Shown piece by piece: positions 4,860 to 32,245 of a stretch of DNA of 64,000 bases. Source of the DNA: Escherichia coli (GTDB lineage Bacteria; Pseudomonadota; Gammaproteobacteria; Enterobacterales; Enterobacteriaceae). A program made the position numbers and the translations under genes. The notes beneath the pieces are model-generated. The model made no database searches. It worked only from the letters and a program-made list of their open reading frames with translations, and was not told where the DNA came from. The stretch's first letter is position 1. Every line of letters starts with the position of its first letter. The stretch lies in assembly GCF_048403405.1 (NCBI RefSeq), contig NZ_CP183129.1. One strand, 5' to 3'.

Positions 4860-5260
4860 CTGAAAATAAACAGGATCTTACACCATGTTATCCACAGAAA
4901 GCTGGGATAACTGTGAAAAACCTCCACTACTGTTTCCATTTACAGCCTTGACGTGCGACGAAACTCCAGTTTTTAGTGGTTCAGTGCTTAACTTAGTGGC
5001 ACATTCTGTGGATAAATACGGCATTGGTTGATCTTTAGCCAACCCGTAAATGAGAGGTGTGACCTGGGTCACGAATTACTCTTTTTTATTACTCAAATTA
5101 CATGTAATGCATTGACTGATAATGAATATTTTAAAATGTCTATATCGGGCTTATTCAGAATGCTCCGGGTTTTCCCGTAGTAATTCCGTAGTTCTTCACA
5201 ACTCTATCCACAGAAAAGGTGAATAAAAACGGCTATCCACCCCTTCCTCTGTTTATAACT
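4860..5260. promoter_or_regulatory. DARS2: DnaA-box cluster in the mutH-rppH intergenic region, consistent with DARS2 (DnaA-reactivating sequence 2)
   Basis: Seen: TTATCCACA at about 4888-4896 (+); an 8/9 box on the opposite strand at about 4910-4918; a perfect box on the opposite strand at about 5007-5015 (tgtggataa); cTATCCACA at about 5204-5212. From memory, DARS2 maps to the mutH-ygdP(rppH) intergenic region in K-12. Confidence 0.5.
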
Positions 5261-5383
5261 CTGCACATAACTGTGAGTTATTCAATTGTTATTAGTGTGT
5301 AATGCCCTGCAGAGAGTGGTTTACCGTCTTCCTGGAGTATGAAACAATCATTCGTATATAAAGCTTTATTTTGAGGTAGTCCG

Positions 5384-5914
5384 GTGATTGATGACGATGG
5401 CTACCGCCCAAACGTAGGTATCGTGATTTGTAATCGCCAGGGGCAGGTAATGTGGGCCCGGCGATTTGGTCAGCACTCCTGGCAATTTCCGCAAGGCGGA
5501 ATCAACCCCGGAGAATCCGCAGAGCAGGCGATGTACCGTGAATTGTTTGAAGAAGTGGGATTAAGCCGTAAAGACGTTCGAATCCTTGCTTCAACGCGTA
5601 ACTGGTTGCGCTACAAATTACCGAAACGTTTGGTGCGTTGGGACACGAAGCCGGTTTGTATCGGCCAAAAACAAAAATGGTTTCTCTTGCAGCTGGTGAG
5701 CGGCGATGCAGAAATCAATATGCAAACCAGCAGTACACCAGAGTTTGACGGCTGGCGATGGGTAAGTTACTGGTATCCGGTCAGACAGGTGGTGTCATTT
5801 AAACGTGATGTCTACCGTAGGGTAATGAAAGAGTTCGCGAGTGTGGTGATGTCACTGCAGGAAAATACACCAAAACCACAAAACGCATCTGCTTATCGAC
5901 GTAAAAGAGGTTAA
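5384..5914 (+). CDS. rppH: RNA pyrophosphohydrolase (Nudix)
   Basis: 176-aa ORF with a Nudix box ([22 protein letters not shown]); followed closely by ptsP. Confidence 0.9.
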
Positions 5915-5926
5915 GTCACGCCAATT

Positions 5927-8173
5927 ATGCTCACTCGCCTGCGCGAAATAGTCGAAAAGGTAGCCAGCGCACCACGCCTGAATGAGGCGTTAAATATTCT
6001 GGTTACCGACATCTGTCTTGCGATGGATACCGAGGTCTGTTCGGTTTACCTTGCCGATCATGATCGACGTTGTTACTACCTGATGGCGACCCGGGGGCTG
6101 AAAAAACCACGCGGTCGCACTGTAACGCTCGCGTTTGATGAAGGGATCGTCGGCCTGGTTGGCAGGCTGGCGGAACCGATAAACCTTGCAGATGCGCAAA
6201 AGCACCCCAGCTTCAAATACATCCCCTCCGTAAAAGAAGAACGTTTCCGCGCGTTTTTAGGCGTACCAATTATTCAACGTCGCCAGTTGCTTGGTGTACT
6301 GGTGGTACAGCAACGAGAGTTGCGCCAGTATGACGAAAGTGAAGAATCCTTCCTGGTGACGCTTGCCACCCAGATGGCTGCGATTCTTTCTCAGTCGCAG
6401 TTGACTGCCTTGTTTGGGCAATATCGCCAGACGCGAATCCGTGCATTACCGGCAGCGCCTGGTGTAGCGATTGCCGAAGGCTGGCAGGATGCCACGTTAC
6501 CTTTAATGGAACAGGTGTATCAGGCATCAACGCTGGATCCAGCTCTGGAACGCGAACGACTGACCGGGGCGCTGGAAGAAGCGGCAAACGAGTTTCGCCG
6601 CTACAGCAAACGCTTTGCCGCCGGTGCACAAAAAGAAACGGCGGCTATTTTCGATCTTTACTCACACCTGCTTTCGGATACCCGGCTGCGGCGCGAATTG
6701 TTTGCCGAGGTTGATAAAGGCTCGGTGGCAGAGTGGGCGGTAAAAACGGTCATTGAAAAATTTGCCGAACAGTTTGCCGCGCTAAGCGATAACTATCTCA
6801 AAGAGCGGGCTGGCGATTTACGTGCGCTGGGTCAGCGATTGCTGTTTCATCTTGATGACGCTAATCAAGGGCCGAACGCCTGGCCGGAACGTTTCATTCT
6901 GGTGGCAGATGAACTGTCAGCGACAACGCTTGCAGAGCTGCCCCAGGATCGCTTAGTCGGTGTTGTCGTGCGAGATGGCGCAGCCAACTCCCATGCTGCG
7001 ATCATGGTACGTGCGCTGGGGATCCCTACCGTAATGGGCGCGGATATTCAGCCTTCGGTGCTGCATCGTCGGACGTTGATCGTCGATGGTTATCGCGGTG
7101 AATTGCTGGTCGATCCGGAGCCGGTACTGCTGCAAGAATATCAGCGGCTAATTAGTGAAGAGATTGAGCTTAGCCGTCTGGCGGAAGATGACGTCAATTT
7201 ACCCGCCCAGTTAAAAAGCGGCGAGCGCATTAAAGTCATGCTCAATGCCGGTTTAAGCCCGGAACATGAAGAAAAACTGGGCAGCCGTATTGATGGCATC
7301 GGTCTTTATCGCACTGAAATCCCATTCATGCTGCAAAGTGGTTTTCCGTCGGAAGAAGAACAGGTGGCGCAGTATCAGGGGATGCTGCAAATGTTCAATG
7401 ATAAACCCGTCACCTTGCGTACGCTGGATGTCGGAGCAGATAAGCAGCTGCCTTACATGCCGATCAGCGAAGAGAATCCATGCCTGGGTTGGCGTGGGAT
7501 TCGCATTACGCTCGATCAGCCGGAGATCTTCTTGATCCAGGTGCGGGCGATGCTGCGTGCTAATGCCGCTACGGGCAACCTGAATATTCTGTTGCCGATG
7601 GTCACCAGCCTCGATGAAGTTGACGAAGCACGCCGCCTGATTGAACGTGCAGGACGTGAAGTCGAGGAGATGATCGGTTACGAAATTCCCAAACCACGTA
7701 TCGGCATCATGCTGGAAGTGCCGTCAATGGTATTTATGCTGCCGCATCTGGCAAAGCGGGTCGATTTTATCTCTGTTGGCACCAACGATCTGACTCAATA
7801 CATCCTGGCCGTTGATCGCAATAATACCCGGGTGGCGAACATTTATGACAGTCTTCATCCTGCAATGTTACGAGCTCTGGCGATGATCGCCCGGGAAGCG
7901 GAAATACATGGAATCGATCTCCGTTTGTGCGGTGAAATGGCGGGCGATCCCATGTGCGTGGCAATCCTCATTGGGCTTGGGTATCGCCATCTGTCTATGA
8001 ACGGACGTTCTGTAGCGCGCGTAAAATACCTGCTGCGGCGCATTGATTTTGCCGAAGCAGAAAATCTTGCGCAGCGTAGTCTGGAAGCGCAACTGGCGAC
8101 CGAAGTTCGCCATCAGGTTGCAGCCTTTATGGAGCGTCGCGGCATGGGCGGGCTGATTCGCGGAGGGTTATAG
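5927..8173 (+). CDS. ptsP: phosphoenolpyruvate-protein phosphotransferase EI-Ntr (GAF domain + PEP-utilising enzyme)
   Basis: 748-aa ORF; N-terminal GAF-like region followed by Enzyme I domains; synteny with rppH. Confidence 0.9.
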   Translation: MLTRLREIVEKVASAPRLNEALNILVTDICLAMDTEVCSVYLADHDRRCYYLMATRGLKKPRGRTVTLAFDEGIVGLVGRLAEPINLADAQKHPSFKYIPSVKEERFRAFLGVPIIQRRQLLGVLVVQQRELRQYDESEESFLVTLATQMAAILSQSQLTALFGQYRQTRIRALPAAPGVAIAEGWQDATLPLMEQVYQASTLDPALERERLTGALEEAANEFRRYSKRFAAGAQKETAAIFDLYSHLLSDTRLRRELFAEVDKGSVAEWAVKTVIEKFAEQFAALSDNYLKERAGDLRALGQRLLFHLDDANQGPNAWPERFILVADELSATTLAELPQDRLVGVVVRDGAANSHAAIMVRALGIPTVMGADIQPSVLHRRTLIVDGYRGELLVDPEPVLLQEYQRLISEEIELSRLAEDDVNLPAQLKSGERIKVMLNAGLSPEHEEKLGSRIDGIGLYRTEIPFMLQSGFPSEEEQVAQYQGMLQMFNDKPVTLRTLDVGADKQLPYMPISEENPCLGWRGIRITLDQPEIFLIQVRAMLRANAATGNLNILLPMVTSLDEVDEARRLIERAGREVEEMIGYEIPKPRIGIMLEVPSMVFMLPHLAKRVDFISVGTNDLTQYILAVDRNNTRVANIYDSLHPAMLRALAMIAREAEIHGIDLRLCGEMAGDPMCVAILIGLGYRHLSMNGRSVARVKYLLRRIDFAEAENLAQRSLEAQLATEVRHQVAAFMERRGMGGLIRGGL

Positions 8174-26604: not shown

Positions 26605-26777
26605 TGTTTTTATTTATTCAATGAATTTATATTTCGTTGAATAGATAACATTTTCATGAATATTAGATGCTGGTTTTGTGACTGATGTCGAATATTTGAA
26701 TGTCGGCTTGAAAAATAAGCCGACCATCTCTTTAATTAAACACAATTCCGTGTAATGTATACACATTAGTTAATCAT

Positions 26778-26850
26778 CTTGTAACTGTTAAATCAGGCAA
26801 GGCAATGTTTGAAGTAATTATTACTTCTGACGTGCCTTGCCTTTTTTTTT
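26778..26850 (+). promoter_or_regulatory. RAT (ribonucleic antiterminator) element overlapping an intrinsic terminator in the leader of the antiterminator gene
   Basis: ttgtaactgttaaatcaggcaagg resembles the sac/bgl/lic RAT consensus; its 3' half (aggcaaggca, 26795-26804) pairs perfectly with tgccttgcct (26833-26842), which is followed by T8. Confidence 0.7.
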
Positions 26851-26861
26851 GGAGTCATGGA

Positions 26862-27686
26862 ATGATCATCGAAAAAGTCATGAACAATAATTGTGTACAG
26901 GCATCGATGAATGGACAGGAGGTTATCATTTCTGGACCTGGCGTCGGTTACAACAAAAAATATGGAATGTCGGTCCCTGAGCATCCGGCTAACCGGATTT
27001 TTTATGTCAGAAATGAACAAAAAAACAAACTCTATAAATTGATTGAACATGTAGATATTGAGTATGTGTTTGTTGCCGAAAAAATAGTGCAATATGCGGA
27101 GAAAAATCTCGAAAAAAATCTCAATCCATCGCTACTATTGATTCTTGCGGATCACATTTCGAATGCAATATCCCGAGTCGCTTCAGGTATACAAATTAAT
27201 AATGTTTTCCTTGATGAAATCAAAGCGTTGTACAAAGCAGAATATGCAATAAGCCGGGATGCATTAACCATCATCAATGAGCAATTTAGCTTTCAACTTC
27301 CGGATGATGAGATTGGTTTTATTGCATTGCATATTTTAAATAACTATGAAAATTCATCTGATTATGAATCGGTACGGATTATTGAATTATCTCAAAAAAT
27401 CACGGAGATTATCGAGGGTATTTATAACCGAAAGGTGGACAGAAGTTCATTTAACTATTCAAGATTTATGATGCACCTTAAGTATTTTTCTAATCGAGTT
27501 TTATGTAATGAAAAGATAAAACAGAAAGATATTGGTGACATCTATGAGCAGTTTCTTGAGAAAGACATCCTGTTACAGCGCGCAATTCATGAAATTGAAA
27601 GGTATCTGTATGCCACTTTTAAATATGAATTAATTTTAGAAGAAAAACTATATCTCTCAATTCGTACCAAAGTATTAATGGACTAA
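26862..27686 (+). CDS. BglG/LicT/SacY-family transcription antiterminator (CAT RNA-binding domain + two PRDs)
   Basis: ATG at 26862 preceded by ggag; N-terminus MIIEKVMNNNCV... aligns to LicT/BglG (MKIAKILNNNVV); the ORF-track start 26805 lies inside the leader terminator. Confidence 0.85.
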   Translation: MIIEKVMNNNCVQASMNGQEVIISGPGVGYNKKYGMSVPEHPANRIFYVRNEQKNKLYKLIEHVDIEYVFVAEKIVQYAEKNLEKNLNPSLLLILADHISNAISRVASGIQINNVFLDEIKALYKAEYAISRDALTIINEQFSFQLPDDEIGFIALHILNNYENSSDYESVRIIELSQKITEIIEGIYNRKVDRSSFNYSRFMMHLKYFSNRVLCNEKIKQKDIGDIYEQFLEKDILLQRAIHEIERYLYATFKYELILEEKLYLSIRTKVLMD

Positions 27687-27717
27687 TTATATATAACATT
27701 TATATGAGATAACCCAC

Positions 27718-29298
27718 ATGAAACAAAAGAAAGCCTGGAGTTTTTTTCAGAGCCTGGGGAAGGCATTTATGTATCCCATTGCTCTGCTAAGTGTATGTGG
27801 CATGATGCTAGGGCTAGGAAGTGGTTTAGCCAGTGATGATATGGCAAAGTTAATTCCATTTCTGGCTATTCCAATAATTAAAACCATACTTGATTTCATT
27901 GTTAGCCTTGGTTTGTTTGCCTTTGTTAATTTACCTGTATTGTTTGCGATAGCAATTCCCTTAGGATTATTAAAAGAGAAAGAGGATAAAGCCTATGGCG
28001 CTTTTTCTGGCTTAATTGGTTTTATGGCGATGCATCTGGGAACGAACTTTTATCTTAAACAGCACGACTTATTGGTCGCTGCTGACCAAATGTCGACACA
28101 TGGGCAAACCATCATTCTGGGGATCCAGTCCTACAATACCAGCGTGTTAGGGGGAATTGTTGCTGGGTTATTAGTCGCCAGCATGTATAAAAAGATCGTT
28201 AATTTACGCATTCCAGAATCATTAGGTTTTTATAGCGGCCCACGTCTGGTGCCTATCATTACACTGATTGTGATGAGTGGATTTGGTCTGATCATTCCTT
28301 TTATCTGGCCGCCGTTTTTCAATCTCTTCATGCTCATTGGCCACTGGATATCAACTTCCGGTCCTGTTGGTTATTTCTTCTATGCAGTTGCCGAACGTGT
28401 GACGATTCCTTTTGGCTTAAACCATCTGGTGACGTCAGTGTTCCGCTTTACGCCAATCGGCGGTTCGGCTGTGATTGGCGGCGAAGAGTATTACGGCACC
28501 CTGAACATGTTTATGGCGTACGTCAAAGAGAATGCGGTCATTCCGCTGGATTTGGCGGGGAAAATGGAGCAGGGCAAACTGATGATTCAGTACGGTCTGG
28601 CTGGTGCTGCACTGGCCATGTATCGCACTGCTCATGCTCAAAACAGAAAGGCTATCAAAGCATTGCTTATTTCCGGTGTGCTTACGGTTATTATTGGTGG
28701 CGTCAGCGAACCGATTGAATTTCTGTTCTTATTTGTCAGTCCGCTGCTGTTTGTCTTCCATGCCTTTATGAATGGATTCGCCAACATGGTCTTGCCATAT
28801 ATGGGCGTGAAGATGGGATTTACTGGCGATCTGATTCAATTTATTAGCTTTGGCGTATTGCGTGGCACAAGAACAGGTTGGCCGATCGCGGTGTGTGTCG
28901 AAGTGGCCTATTTCTTCATTTATTACTTTGTGTTCCGTTGGACCATTCTCAAATTTAACCTGATGACCGTAGGACGTGAAGAGTCCAGTCCTGTCACGCT
29001 GAACGCTCACGAAGAAACTGCAATAGCTAATATCCCAGCTTATGATAAATCAGAGTTGCAGGCAGCGGAGCAAATGGTTAAGGCTCTGGGTGGAAAAGAA
29101 AATATTAAATCACTGGATAATTGTGTCACTCGTTTGCGTTTAACTATCGCAGATATGGGATTGATAGATGAGGCTGCAATTAAAAGTGCCGGAGGGATTG
29201 CGGTTGTGAAACTTGATCAAAATACCTTACAAGTCATTATCGGCACTAAAGTCATCGCCCTGCGTCGGGATATGGATAACTACATGGGGATACGCTGA
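27718..29298 (+). CDS. PTS permease EIICB, glucose/maltose (MalX/PtsG-like) family; no EIIA domain
   Basis: 526-aa polytopic ORF; C-terminal EIIB domain with phospho-cysteine motif NCVTRLRL. Confidence 0.85.
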   Translation: MKQKKAWSFFQSLGKAFMYPIALLSVCGMMLGLGSGLASDDMAKLIPFLAIPIIKTILDFIVSLGLFAFVNLPVLFAIAIPLGLLKEKEDKAYGAFSGLIGFMAMHLGTNFYLKQHDLLVAADQMSTHGQTIILGIQSYNTSVLGGIVAGLLVASMYKKIVNLRIPESLGFYSGPRLVPIITLIVMSGFGLIIPFIWPPFFNLFMLIGHWISTSGPVGYFFYAVAERVTIPFGLNHLVTSVFRFTPIGGSAVIGGEEYYGTLNMFMAYVKENAVIPLDLAGKMEQGKLMIQYGLAGAALAMYRTAHAQNRKAIKALLISGVLTVIIGGVSEPIEFLFLFVSPLLFVFHAFMNGFANMVLPYMGVKMGFTGDLIQFISFGVLRGTRTGWPIAVCVEVAYFFIYYFVFRWTILKFNLMTVGREESSPVTLNAHEETAIANIPAYDKSELQAAEQMVKALGGKENIKSLDNCVTRLRLTIADMGLIDEAAIKSAGGIAVVKLDQNTLQVIIGTKVIALRRDMDNYMGIR

Positions 29299-30482
29299 TG
29301 AATGTTTTTAATACCCCTATCTCCCGTAAAGGAACATATTGCACTCAATGGGACTTTTGTGAGGACAGATTTGGTGTAAAAGATGTATTACCATTTTCTA
29401 TTTCAGATATGGATCTTCCGATACCGGAAGCTATCATCAGGGCATTAAAAAAACGCCTGGAACACCCGATTTTAGGGTACAGCCGTTGGCAGCATGATGA
29501 TTATCTGAATGCGATAGTCAATTGGTATCATCAACAATATAAAACTGAAATAAAACCAGAATGGATCACCTATAGCCCAAGTGTGATGTATTCAATTGCT
29601 AAGGCAATAGAGTTATTAACATTGAATGGAGATAACATTCTCATTTTTACGCCTGTTTATAACGCATTTTTTGATGTAATTAAACAAAGTGGTCGAAATA
29701 TGCTAACAACCTCTTTGAATAAAGAAAATGAGAGAGGCTACGCTATCAACTGGCAAGATTTTGAGCTAAAAATTAAAAGCGCGAAGATGGTGTTATTGTG
29801 TAATCCTCATAACCCGACAGGAACCGTCTGGTCGGAAGAAGATCTCTTCAAAATCGCTGCAAGCTGCGCAAAACAAAAAATCTGGCTATGTTCAGATGAA
29901 ATTCACAGTGATTTTGTTTTTAACCATGGTTTCACGTCCGCGTTAAAAATAAAAAATGACAAAGTAGTGGTGTTAAATTCGATTTCGAAAACATTTAATG
30001 TTCCTGCACTAACAGGATCATATATGATATCCGCTGACCAGGATTTTAATGATAAGTTTAGAACGATATCAAGATATCGCGATTTTGTAAACTCACCATC
30101 TATATTGAATGTGATTGCTACCATTGTTGCTTATAACGAATGTGAAGAATGGTTAAAGTCGTTAAAGGATCATATTGCCTCTAACATTCAATTTACCCAG
30201 CAGTATTTGAATGAAAATATTCCAGAATTGATCGTGAGGTCCGCTGAGGGTTGCTATTTTTCGTGGATAGATTGCTCGGCCATTGGCTATCCCTTTGATA
30301 AATTTTACCGACGATTAATTGATGAAGGGAAAGTGGGTATTATGGCGGGGTATGTTTATGGTACGGAAGGTGAGGGCTATCTGCGTCTGAATCTGGCCTG
30401 CGGTCGAGAAAAATTATATATGGGGCTTGTGCGCCTTGCGAGTGTAATTAAAAATATTAATCAGGAAAAAGAAAATGAATAA
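29298..30482 (+). CDS. MalY/PatB-like PLP-dependent C-S lyase (aminotransferase class I/II fold)
   Basis: 394 aa; N-terminus GTYCTQWDF...DVLPFSISDMD closely parallels MalY; PLP-lysine motif SISKTFN; start overlaps the PTS stop. Confidence 0.8.
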   Translation: MNVFNTPISRKGTYCTQWDFCEDRFGVKDVLPFSISDMDLPIPEAIIRALKKRLEHPILGYSRWQHDDYLNAIVNWYHQQYKTEIKPEWITYSPSVMYSIAKAIELLTLNGDNILIFTPVYNAFFDVIKQSGRNMLTTSLNKENERGYAINWQDFELKIKSAKMVLLCNPHNPTGTVWSEEDLFKIAASCAKQKIWLCSDEIHSDFVFNHGFTSALKIKNDKVVVLNSISKTFNVPALTGSYMISADQDFNDKFRTISRYRDFVNSPSILNVIATIVAYNECEEWLKSLKDHIASNIQFTQQYLNENIPELIVRSAEGCYFSWIDCSAIGYPFDKFYRRLIDEGKVGIMAGYVYGTEGEGYLRLNLACGREKLYMGLVRLASVIKNINQEKENE

Positions 30483-31071
30483 CTCGGAACTTATACATCT
30501 TATTAAACATTTTATGCGTAACGAACATAAGGCCGTTGAAGAGGTTATTGATTCCCCACTTTCTGAAGTCGCTAATTTAATTAAAGTATTACAATCTTGT
30601 CAGGGTAAAGTTGTTTTTATTGGTGTTGGTAAGTCCGGTATTATTGCCAGAAAACTCGCAGCAACATTTGCCAGTACCGGAACTCCCTCGTTTTTTGTTC
30701 ACGGTACGGAAGCGGTACACGGCGACCTTGGAATGGTGGCGAAAGACGATGTTGTTATTCTTATTTCAAACAGTGGTGAGACGGCGGAAATCCTGGCGAC
30801 ACTGCCTAGTCTGAAAAGAATGGGTAATTATTTGATCTCTTTTACCCGCAGTCATCACTCATCGCTTGCGATAAGTTGTGATTTATCTGTTGAAATCCCC
30901 GTCAAAAGTGAGGCGGATAATTTAGGTTTAGCACCGTCATGCTCGTCTACTGTTGTTCTGGTTGTTGGTGATGCGGTGGCGCTTGCACTCTCCGAATTGA
31001 AAAAATTTACTCGTGCCGATTTCGGCTTATATCATCCAGGAGGTGCACTCGGCATTAAAGCAAATTCATAA
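30475..31071 (+). CDS. SIS-domain-only sugar-phosphate isomerase-like protein (resembles the N-terminal half of KdsD/GutQ arabinose-5-phosphate isomerases, no CBS domains)
   Basis: 198 aa; motifs GVGKSGIIARKLAATFASTGTPSFFVHGTEAVHGDLGM, SNSGET and HPGGALG; start overlaps the MalY-like stop by 8 nt. Confidence 0.8.
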   Translation: MNNSELIHLIKHFMRNEHKAVEEVIDSPLSEVANLIKVLQSCQGKVVFIGVGKSGIIARKLAATFASTGTPSFFVHGTEAVHGDLGMVAKDDVVILISNSGETAEILATLPSLKRMGNYLISFTRSHHSSLAISCDLSVEIPVKSEADNLGLAPSCSSTVVLVVGDAVALALSELKKFTRADFGLYHPGGALGIKANS

Positions 31072-31142
31072 TTTCAAAATATAAATACAGTAACCGGTCA
31101 CGCCATCTTTTGGGGTGGCGTTCATTGAAGTGAGTGTCAGCT

Positions 31143-32090
31143 ATGAAAAATGTTCTGGTCACCGTCCCCAGCTTTTCAGCACGCTGTGTTTCCGCCAGCA
31201 AGTTGCTAAGAGAGAATAATTTTAATCTTATTATTAAGAATAATGTGGAGCATCTGCTTAAATCAGAATCCACTGCATTACGAGAATCTATTTGCGCGGT
31301 CATCGCCGGAAAAGATTGTTATCAGGCGGATACGCTATCATTGCTGCCTGGTGTGAAAATAATATCGAGATTCGGGACGGGGATAGACAATATTGATCTT
31401 CGTGCGGCACAGCAATCCGGTATTGTAGTCAAAAATGCGGTTGGGATTAATTCAAATGCGGTTGCGGAATTTATCATTGGACTTATCTTTGCGAGCATGA
31501 GAAATATTCCTGGCAGCTATCATGCGATGCAAAATGGCTACTGGGTTGAGTCGCATGGCTGTGAATTACAAGGGAAACGGATTGGCCTGGTTGGCTACGG
31601 TAATATAGGTAAAACCCTGGCGAAAAGGTTGTCTGGTTTTGATGTTGAGCTTTTAGCTTTTGACAAACAACCCGATTTTCAGGCCGCTGGCAAAGATGGA
31701 GTTCAGTTTGTATCAATTGAAGATATCTTTATGCAGTCGCATGTCATCATTGTTCTTTTACCTTTTTCTCCTGAGCTGGAGAACTTCATTAGTCATAAAT
31801 ATTTGTCAATGATGCGCAATGGTGCTCTGATCATCAATGCCGCAAGGGGAAAGTTGCTGGATGAGGGCGCTTTACTTCAGGTGATTGAAGAACGAAATGT
31901 GTTTGCGGCGCTGGATGTGTTTAGCTCTGAACCGTTGGCGCAATTTAGCCCACTGCTACATGCCAAAAATATCATTACAACGCCGCATATTGCGGCCGCC
32001 ACCGTTGAGTCATACCAGCAAACCGGGATACACGTTGCCCAGTCAATAATTGATTACTTCGCAGGAAGGGAGATAAAAAACGTGTTGTGA
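31143..32090 (+). CDS. D-isomer-specific 2-hydroxyacid dehydrogenase, NAD-binding
   Basis: ATG at 31143 preceded by gaagtgag (ORF-track 31134 is a GTG upstream); Rossmann motif GLVGYGNIGKTLAKRL. Confidence 0.8.
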   Translation: MKNVLVTVPSFSARCVSASKLLRENNFNLIIKNNVEHLLKSESTALRESICAVIAGKDCYQADTLSLLPGVKIISRFGTGIDNIDLRAAQQSGIVVKNAVGINSNAVAEFIIGLIFASMRNIPGSYHAMQNGYWVESHGCELQGKRIGLVGYGNIGKTLAKRLSGFDVELLAFDKQPDFQAAGKDGVQFVSIEDIFMQSHVIIVLLPFSPELENFISHKYLSMMRNGALIINAARGKLLDEGALLQVIEERNVFAALDVFSSEPLAQFSPLLHAKNIITTPHIAAATVESYQQTGIHVAQSIIDYFAGREIKNVL

Positions 32091-32116
32091 GTTCAGCGAA
32101 CGAAGATTTTAAATAC

Positions 32117-32149
32117 AAAAAAACCGCAATTTGTGGAACACATTGCGGT
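32117..32149 (-). terminator. intrinsic terminator downstream of the tRNA-fMet operon (minus strand)
   Basis: On the minus strand, stem ccgcaat/attgcgg followed by T7; lies just 3' of the last tRNA copy. Confidence 0.55.
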
Positions 32150-32168
32150 TTATCAGCATTCTAAGTAT

Positions 32169-32245
<77 letters not shown>

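Follow-up and report, generated by a model that had tools for sequence, protein, structure and literature searches.

The islet beside metV

The window analysed here, a 64-kb stretch of Escherichia coli DNA, carries in this order aas-lplT, ptsP, recCBD-argA-amiC, the islet described below, metVWZ-mltA-tcdA-csdEA, fuc and gud-barA. By BLAST, its whole length of 64 kb matches E. coli strain 4621, a human blood isolate (NZ_CP103479.1), at 99.989% identity, and the PGAP annotation of that strain could therefore be read onto the window. Between the stop codon of amiC and the 3' end of the tRNA-Met gene metV lies an islet of 5.56 kb (positions 26606-32166). In the alignment with K-12, homology stops at 26605 and restarts at 32167, about 70 bp of K-12 spacer being replaced by the islet, and metV itself (32169-32245, minus strand; ARAGORN and K-12 annotation) serves as the landmark at the right edge. 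The GC content of the islet is 40.0%, compared with 52-54% in the flanks. At a coverage of at least 80%, the islet was found in 1683 of 5426 complete E. coli genomes.

Five coding sequences on the plus strand fill the islet, in the order PRD antiterminator, EIICB permease, MalY/PatB-type lyase, SIS-only isomerase and PGDH-like dehydrogenase. The antiterminator (26862-27686) is a BglG/LicT-family protein of 274 amino acids with a CAT RNA-binding domain and two PRDs (Pfam CAT_RBD and PRD), and it is followed by the gene for a glucose-family PTS permease of 526 amino acids, consisting of EIIC and EIIB without EIIA (27718-29298). The stop of the permease gene is overlapped by the start of a gene encoding a MalY/PatB-family PLP-dependent C-S lyase of 394 amino acids (29298-30482), which scores 364 bits against TIGR04350, above the cutoff of 340. 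Next comes a SIS-only, KpsF/GutQ-like sugar-phosphate isomerase of 198 amino acids without CBS domains (30475-31071; Pfam SIS), corresponding to c3406 of strain CFT073 and covering only positions 37-201 of the 328-position KdsD model. The last gene encodes a D-2-hydroxyacid or phosphoglycerate-dehydrogenase-like enzyme (31143-32090; Pfam 2-Hacid_dh_C).

Mosberg et al. 2011 (J Bacteriol 193:2981) reportedly found arabinose-5-phosphate isomerase activity in the SIS protein c3406, and are said to have described the operon as one for an unknown carbohydrate. The substrate ideas that we considered, none of which is claimed here, were conjugates of a sugar with an amino acid, S- or O-linked, which the PLP lyase would cleave; a scheme like that of MurP/MurQ for the SIS protein; and a connection with arabinose 5-phosphate. 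[quoted passage not shown]

The locus has already been described, as c3405-c3410 of PAI-CFT073-metV (PMC2831201), and part of it is familiar from epidemiology. The primers of the 'RPAi / malX' marker of Johnson and Stell (2000; sequences as in Table 2 of PMC12058657) each match the window once, with one mismatch and with no match expected by chance, at 27563-27584 on the plus strand and at 28463-28484 on the minus strand. The resulting amplicon of 922 bp (27563-28484), for a marker of about 0.93 kb, lies beside metV and spans the junction of the antiterminator and permease genes. The permease gene is thus the 'malX' pathogenicity-island marker that is scored in surveys of extraintestinal pathogenic E. 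coli (ExPEC). It is present in 1688 of the 5426 complete genomes, and the window carries a minority allele, with an identity of at least 99% in only 122 of the 1688.

A permease that ends with its EIIB domain

The open reading frame at 27718-29298 coincides exactly with the PGAP coding sequence 'PTS transporter subunit EIIC' of strain 4621 (WP_000810566.1). Pfam places PTS_EIIC (PF02378) at residues 14-353 over the full length of the model (E = 1.3e-73) and PTS_EIIB (PF00367) at residues 452-484 (E = 1.2e-14), and found no EIIA domain in the permease nor anything else beyond these two. The EIIB active-site motif IKSLDNCVTRLRL is present as DNCVTRLRL, with the cysteine at residue 469 (codon 29122-29124). 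Among solved structures, the best match of the EIIB domain is chain B of 1O2F, which is the IIB half of the complex between IIA(Glc) and IIB(Glc): the C-terminal 102 amino acids of the permease match residues 9-88 of the 90 residues of PtsG IIB(Glc) (E = 1.4e-15), Cys469 aligns with C421 of PtsG (CITRLR), and the Cys-x-Thr-Arg-Leu-Arg loop is kept. Since the alignment runs to the end of IIB(Glc), nothing follows EIIB in the permease. The initial annotation had stated that the permease ends with EIIB (NCVTRLRL), and the Pfam domains, the motif around Cys469 and this end-alignment all bear it out. With both domains in place, the permease is assigned by its sequence to the Glc/Mal branch of the glucose family, as an EIICB with a Cys-type EIIB.

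The nearest E. coli paralogue is MalX of K-12, with 42% identity over the full length. True orthology to MalX was considered and rejected: the MalX families are the best NCBIfam models for the permease, but it scores below the curated cutoffs of both (540.1 bits against a cutoff of 632.2 for TIGR02004, and 526.2 against 665 for NF007509); it represents a paralogous subfamily. By these scores, the name 'malX' for the islet permease is a label and not a statement of orthology.

The initial annotation had also held that no EIIA-like domain is encoded in the islet, which proved correct, as the five coding sequences fill the 5.56 kb with gaps of at most 257 bp. The largest non-coding gap is the 257-bp leader, and there is therefore no room for an EIIA in the islet. 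Over the whole 64-kb window, a tblastn search with E. coli Crr gave a best E value of 0.5 over 17 amino acids, and the PGAP annotation lists no PTS EIIA, ptsP being the sole other PTS gene.

Leader and antiterminator

An intrinsic terminator (26795-26850, plus strand) occupies the leader, consisting of a hairpin at 26795-26842 followed by nine T and ending 11 nt before the ATG of the antiterminator gene, with a Shine-Dalgarno sequence in between. The hairpin folds with -29.6 kcal/mol (z = -5.8), and none of 200 shuffled sequences was as stable. Its 5' arm is overlapped by a RAT-like antiterminator site read from the sequence at 26779-26806 on the plus strand (cTTGTAACTGttaaatCAGGCAAGgca), the element reading TTGTAACTG...CAGGCAAG. 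In Atlantibacter the stem is kept through paired changes (GGCA/TGCC to GACA/TGTC), and a motif scan also found a RAT element at the orthologous loci of Atlantibacter, C. difficile, L012 and L013. A RAT that overlaps a terminator ahead of the antiterminator gene points to an operon of the autoregulated bglG-type design.

Against the NCBIfam LicT model the antiterminator scores 230 bits, below the cutoff of 300, with positions 1-269 of 273 matched. The two firmicute models score higher (LicT 230 and GlcT 183 bits) than BglG (103 bits), and the LicT structures 1TLV and 6TWR are matched. The protein has the CAT domain and two PRDs of a BglG/LicT-type regulator, and its presumed target has the RAT over a terminator, but the set of four phosphorylatable histidines is incomplete. 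Of the canonical PRD histidines, those equivalent to LicT His100, His159 and His207 are conserved. At the position of LicT H269, the second histidine of PRD2, E. coli and Atlantibacter alone have an arginine, and Enterobacter and all firmicute orthologues have a histidine. Because one of the four canonical histidines is absent, control by this antiterminator may deviate from the LicT model.

Firmicute relatives keep an EIIA gene beside the operon

A database search at an identity of at least 60% gave a distinct clade of permease orthologues from E. coli (98% identical to the EIICB of the islet), Atlantibacter hermannii (86%), Enterobacter (76-78%), Clostridioides difficile (68%) and Clostridium spp., including Clostridium sp. 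KNHs214 (64%), with clostridial metagenome sequences taking the clade down to about 60%. Beyond it, the next matches fall to 46% and are generic MalX-like proteins. All members of the clade are about 520 amino acids long and consist of EIIC and EIIB only, with no fused EIIA. A fused PF00358 EIIA was seen in a more distant MalX-like protein of Lactococcus (P0077).

Gene neighbourhoods were read for nine orthologues. The core of antiterminator, EIICB and lyase genes is conserved among the orthologous loci, usually with the SIS gene behind it. In all six informative firmicute loci (L007, L008/L009, L013, L014, L015 and L017) the operon has a stand-alone PF00358 EIIA gene as a neighbour; at L012 and L016, contig ends cut off the relevant side, which makes these two uninformative on EIIA. 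In C. difficile (L007) the EIIA gene lies directly after the SIS gene (5004-5474 of that locus), in Clostridium sp. KNHs214 (L008/L009), L013, L014 and L015 it lies divergently upstream of the operon, and in L017 it is upstream on the same strand. Both catalytic histidines are kept in the four neighbouring EIIAs that were aligned with Crr (L007, L008, L013 and L014). By contrast, none of the three enterobacterial versions, in the E. coli window, Atlantibacter (L010) and Enterobacter (L011), has an EIIA beside the operon. The Atlantibacter operon occupies the same amiC-metV site as that of E. coli, and the Enterobacter operon a different one, next to fruBKA.

Among the orthologous loci, the dehydrogenase gene was found only in the Escherichia and Atlantibacter versions (tblastn; 67% identity in L010), and the Atlantibacter copy is interrupted in that assembly. 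In E. coli it follows the SIS gene, a place taken in C. difficile by the EIIA gene. What the present analysis adds, modestly, is this comparison: a private EIIA gene accompanies the operon in clostridia and is missing from the enterobacterial versions, a contrast that strengthens the reading that the islet permease borrows its EIIA.

Which EIIA serves the permease

The initial annotation had proposed that phosphotransfer to the permease comes from an EIIA encoded elsewhere, and both the type of its EIIB and the PF00358 proteins beside the clostridial operons argue for a glucose-class EIIA acting in trans. The permease would need such a donor because the clostridial operons have a PF00358 EIIA, the enterobacterial ones have none, and crr is nearly universal, being present in 5425 of the 5426 complete E. 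coli genomes. We therefore favour one composite reading, to which we assign as a whole a probability of roughly three in four: the islet would be a PTS operon for the catabolism of a sugar derivative, acquired horizontally and controlled by an antiterminator, its permease would be served in trans by a glucose-class EIIA, chiefly Crr, and the enterobacterial versions of the operon would have dispensed with the EIIA that their firmicute relatives keep. As the specific donor, Crr is most probably the default. In the searchable literature we found no experiment linking Crr to the islet permease, and nothing specific on the C. difficile operon.

We take the core genome of E. coli to hold three EIIA(Glc)-type domains, namely Crr and the C-termini of NagE and BglF. 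Crr is soluble, abundant and constitutive, whereas expression of nagE requires amino sugars and most E. coli carry bglF in cryptic form, and this speaks against the alternative that the donor is the EIIA domain of NagE (EIICBA) or BglF (EIIBCA), acting by itself or in redundancy with Crr. Similarity to the dedicated clostridial EIIAs is about the same for Crr (33-44% identity), NagE-IIA (35-42%) and BglF-IIA (34-41%), which is in favour of that alternative, and sequence therefore cannot choose among the three. The EIIB of the islet, on the other hand, is closest to those of MalX (48%) and PtsG (43%), which are clients of Crr (for MalX 'probably'; PMC6148471), and has only 35% identity to that of BglF. 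More broadly, AscF, PtsG and TreB are on record as receiving their phosphate from Crr, and MalX and GlvB probably do so too (PMC6148471; PMC9191683). Cross-talk within the family is on record as well: BglF is able to replace Crr for PtsG and ScrA, and glucose uptake is lost only in a crr man nagE triple mutant (PMC6148471). Weighing these points, we consider NagE or BglF an unlikely donor. In view of the same records of substitution, a mutant lacking only crr may be leaky, and the proposal of the initial annotation that transport unaffected in a crr mutant would refute borrowing from Crr is the weaker for it.

A different kind of alternative is that the permease is not a catabolic transporter at all but a sensor for the antiterminator, or a decaying remnant, in which case the supply of EIIA would matter little. 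It is in keeping with this that SacX of B. subtilis is described as mainly a sensor (PMC6148471), and that the dehydrogenase copy of Atlantibacter is interrupted. Yet the five genes of the islet are intact, tightly packed and translationally coupled, and the permease gene is found at a coverage of at least 80% and with 90-100% identity in 1687 genomes. Furthermore, Lloyd et al. 2009 (J Bacteriol 191:3469) are said to have localised to c3405-c3410 the attenuation of a PAI-metV deletion in mouse urinary-tract infection, the deletion of c3405-c3410 reportedly lowering fitness there. A sensor, too, would require an EIIA for its phosphorylation. We regard this possibility as quite improbable.

It could also be that islet-positive strains carry the true partner as an unlinked accessory gene of the EIIA(Glc) type. 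Firmicute relatives do have a dedicated EIIA, and several accessory PTS clusters occur in ExPEC strains (PMC2831201). However, among the best 120 homologues of the C. difficile EIIA (at least 45% identity) all the named proteins are clostridial and none is from E. coli, at an EIICB identity of 68% between E. coli and C. difficile; the E. coli cluster of the permease alone, by contrast, comprises thousands of sequences. In addition, Enterobacter and E. coli carry the islet at chromosomal sites that differ, in both cases by itself and unaccompanied by an EIIA gene. On the evidence of these 120 homologues and of the islet sites, an unlinked partner is very unlikely. [quoted passage not shown]

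Predicted phosphoryl flow and control

If the permease indeed draws on an EIIA in trans, phosphate would pass from PEP through EI, HPr and Crr to Cys469 of EIIB and from there to the substrate; Crr, soluble and constitutive, stands here as the most probable donor among the glucose-class EIIAs encoded outside the islet. In the BglG/LicT paradigm, EIIB~P of the permease acts on PRD1, and PRD2 receives its phosphate from HPr. By analogy, EIIB~P would phosphorylate PRD1 as long as the substrate is absent, leaving the antiterminator inactive, and transcription would stop at the leader terminator. When the substrate is present, phosphate would drain to the sugar, and the antiterminator would bind the RAT and allow the whole operon, including its own gene, to be read through. 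Without a supply of EIIA, antitermination would be expected to become constitutive and uptake to cease. In this picture, the identity of the donor, the direction of PRD control and any effect on cAMP or inducer exclusion are inferred. The initial annotation had suggested that drawing on Crr would couple the islet to glucose catabolite control and to PRD phosphorylation of its antiterminator; the latter idea stands in spirit, but not as a direct link, since the coupling would go through EIIB~P, and for PRD2 through HPr.

For E. coli, a glucose-family permease that lacks an EIIA and relies on Crr is nothing unusual, and by itself it matters little. In a further scenario, which we consider speculative and unlikely, the operon lost its private EIIA on moving from a firmicute into the Enterobacteriaceae and was thereby connected to Crr. 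Uptake of a host-derived substrate would then dephosphorylate Crr and change cAMP levels and inducer exclusion, and the His-to-Arg change in PRD2, which was seen only in Escherichia and Atlantibacter, would belong to this adaptation to the PTS of the new host. If this were true, the effect on fitness reported for the islet in urinary-tract infection would stem in part from regulation and not from nutrition alone.

Some practical value comes from the use of the gene as a 'virulence marker' in very many ExPEC surveys. A crr background, or a crr nagE bglF background, would be expected to disable the permease, and together with the matched clostridial EIIA it would provide genetic handles for finding the substrate, for which we suggest the C. 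difficile EIIA as a complementation reagent. They would also help in understanding why, as reported, a strain deleted for c3405-c3410 colonises less well.

Comparison with known systems

The closest described counterpart is c3405-c3410 of CFT073, which is the same locus, in the same place beside metV and with the same gene set (PMC2831201). The CFT073 island is 32 kb long and includes type VI secretion genes, whereas the islet of the window stands alone without them. The malX-malY pair of K-12 matches the EIICB and lyase genes of the islet, arranged in that order, with identities of 42% for the EIICB and 36% for the lyase, and both permeases lack an EIIA and share the sequence SLDNC(I/V)TRLRL. 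The two systems differ in their regulation, the islet having a PRD antiterminator with RAT and terminator and K-12 malXY the LacI-type repressor MalI, and the islet has the additional genes for the SIS isomerase and the dehydrogenase. The clostridial operons (for example L007 and L008) share with the islet the core of antiterminator, EIICB, lyase and SIS genes, RAT elements, and an EIICB identity of 63-68%. They have their own stand-alone protein of the EIIA(Glc) type and no dehydrogenase, while in the islet it is the reverse.

With regard to the supply of phosphate, the absence of an EIIA is an ordinary architecture in the glucose family. The EIIA-deficient permeases PtsG, TreB and AscF of E. 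coli are supplied in trans by Crr, with cross-talk within the family, as is proposed for the islet (PMC6148471). MalP, TreP, SacP and NagP of B. subtilis have the same arrangement and use the EIIA domains of PtsG, GamP and PtsA (PMC6148471). For these permeases the donor has been tested genetically or biochemically, whereas for that of the islet it is proposed from sequence. With regard to control, the islet resembles bglGFB of E. coli, in which a RAT over a terminator is likewise followed by the antiterminator gene and then by the permease gene. The antiterminator of the islet is 29% identical to BglG, and the permeases differ in that BglF carries its own EIIA (EIIBCA) and the islet permease does not.

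Genomic setting and alleles of the islet

The islet (window 26606-32166) extends exactly from the stop codon of amiC to the 3' end of the metV tRNA gene, and it carries no mobility genes, neither an integrase nor a transposase nor any other. The ptsP gene (5926-8172, + strand), encoding EI-Ntr of the nitrogen PTS, belongs to the core genome 19 kb upstream of the islet, and it appears to be a chance neighbour rather than an islet gene. In the orthologous Enterobacter locus (L011, 11374-15143), a four-gene core that lacks both the dehydrogenase and an EIIA occupies a chromosomal site other than that in E. coli, directly adjoining a fruBKA-like cluster whose genes carry PF00359 plus PTS-HPr, PfkB, and PTS_IIB plus PTS_EIIC domains. 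This difference in chromosomal site indicates that the operon was inserted independently in different Enterobacteriaceae.

Comparison of the permease (EIICB) gene (27718-29298) with 5426 E. coli genomes revealed three bands of identity relative to the window: at least 99% (122 genomes), 95-99% (1176 genomes) and 90-95% (390 genomes). Since the highest band holds only 122 genomes, the window's permease gene is a minority allele. The divergence, up to about 7%, looks greater than would be expected for E. coli core genes. Each of the RPAi primers, which amplify the malX PAI marker of ExPEC, has one mismatch to the window allele.

Antiterminator control

Residue 268 of the antiterminator (in LYLSIRT; codon at 27663-27665), which occupies the position of the fourth canonical PRD histidine (equivalent to H269 in PRD2 of LicT), is Arg. 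In the alignment, Arg is shared by the E. coli and Atlantibacter antiterminators, and His is present in Enterobacter and in all seven of the aligned firmicute orthologues. It is possible, judging from these sequences, that the His-to-Arg replacement in PRD2 alters HPr-dependent control in E. coli and Atlantibacter.

Between the antiterminator and EIICB genes of C. difficile (L007, 1152-1570), a 104-bp unit is repeated four times in tandem with 92% matching, and each unit contains a complete RAT (GGATTGTAACTG...GCAGGCAAAACC), after which come a hairpin resembling a terminator and a T-run. Because all four units carry this arrangement, the C. difficile permease gene is predicted to be preceded by four antitermination checkpoints in series.

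Comparison with related loci

Downstream of metV, CFT073 and strain W carry a type VI secretion cluster, whereas the islet of the window strain is without it. The PGDH-like dehydrogenase gene (31143-32090), downstream of the SIS gene, is an add-on to the operon that, among the orthologous loci compared, occurs only in the Escherichia and Atlantibacter versions; in the Atlantibacter assembly, two ORFs share the sequence of the copy (L010, 11436-12380; 67% identity). In the C. difficile operon, by contrast, the SIS gene is followed by an EIIA, in the place taken by the dehydrogenase in E. coli.
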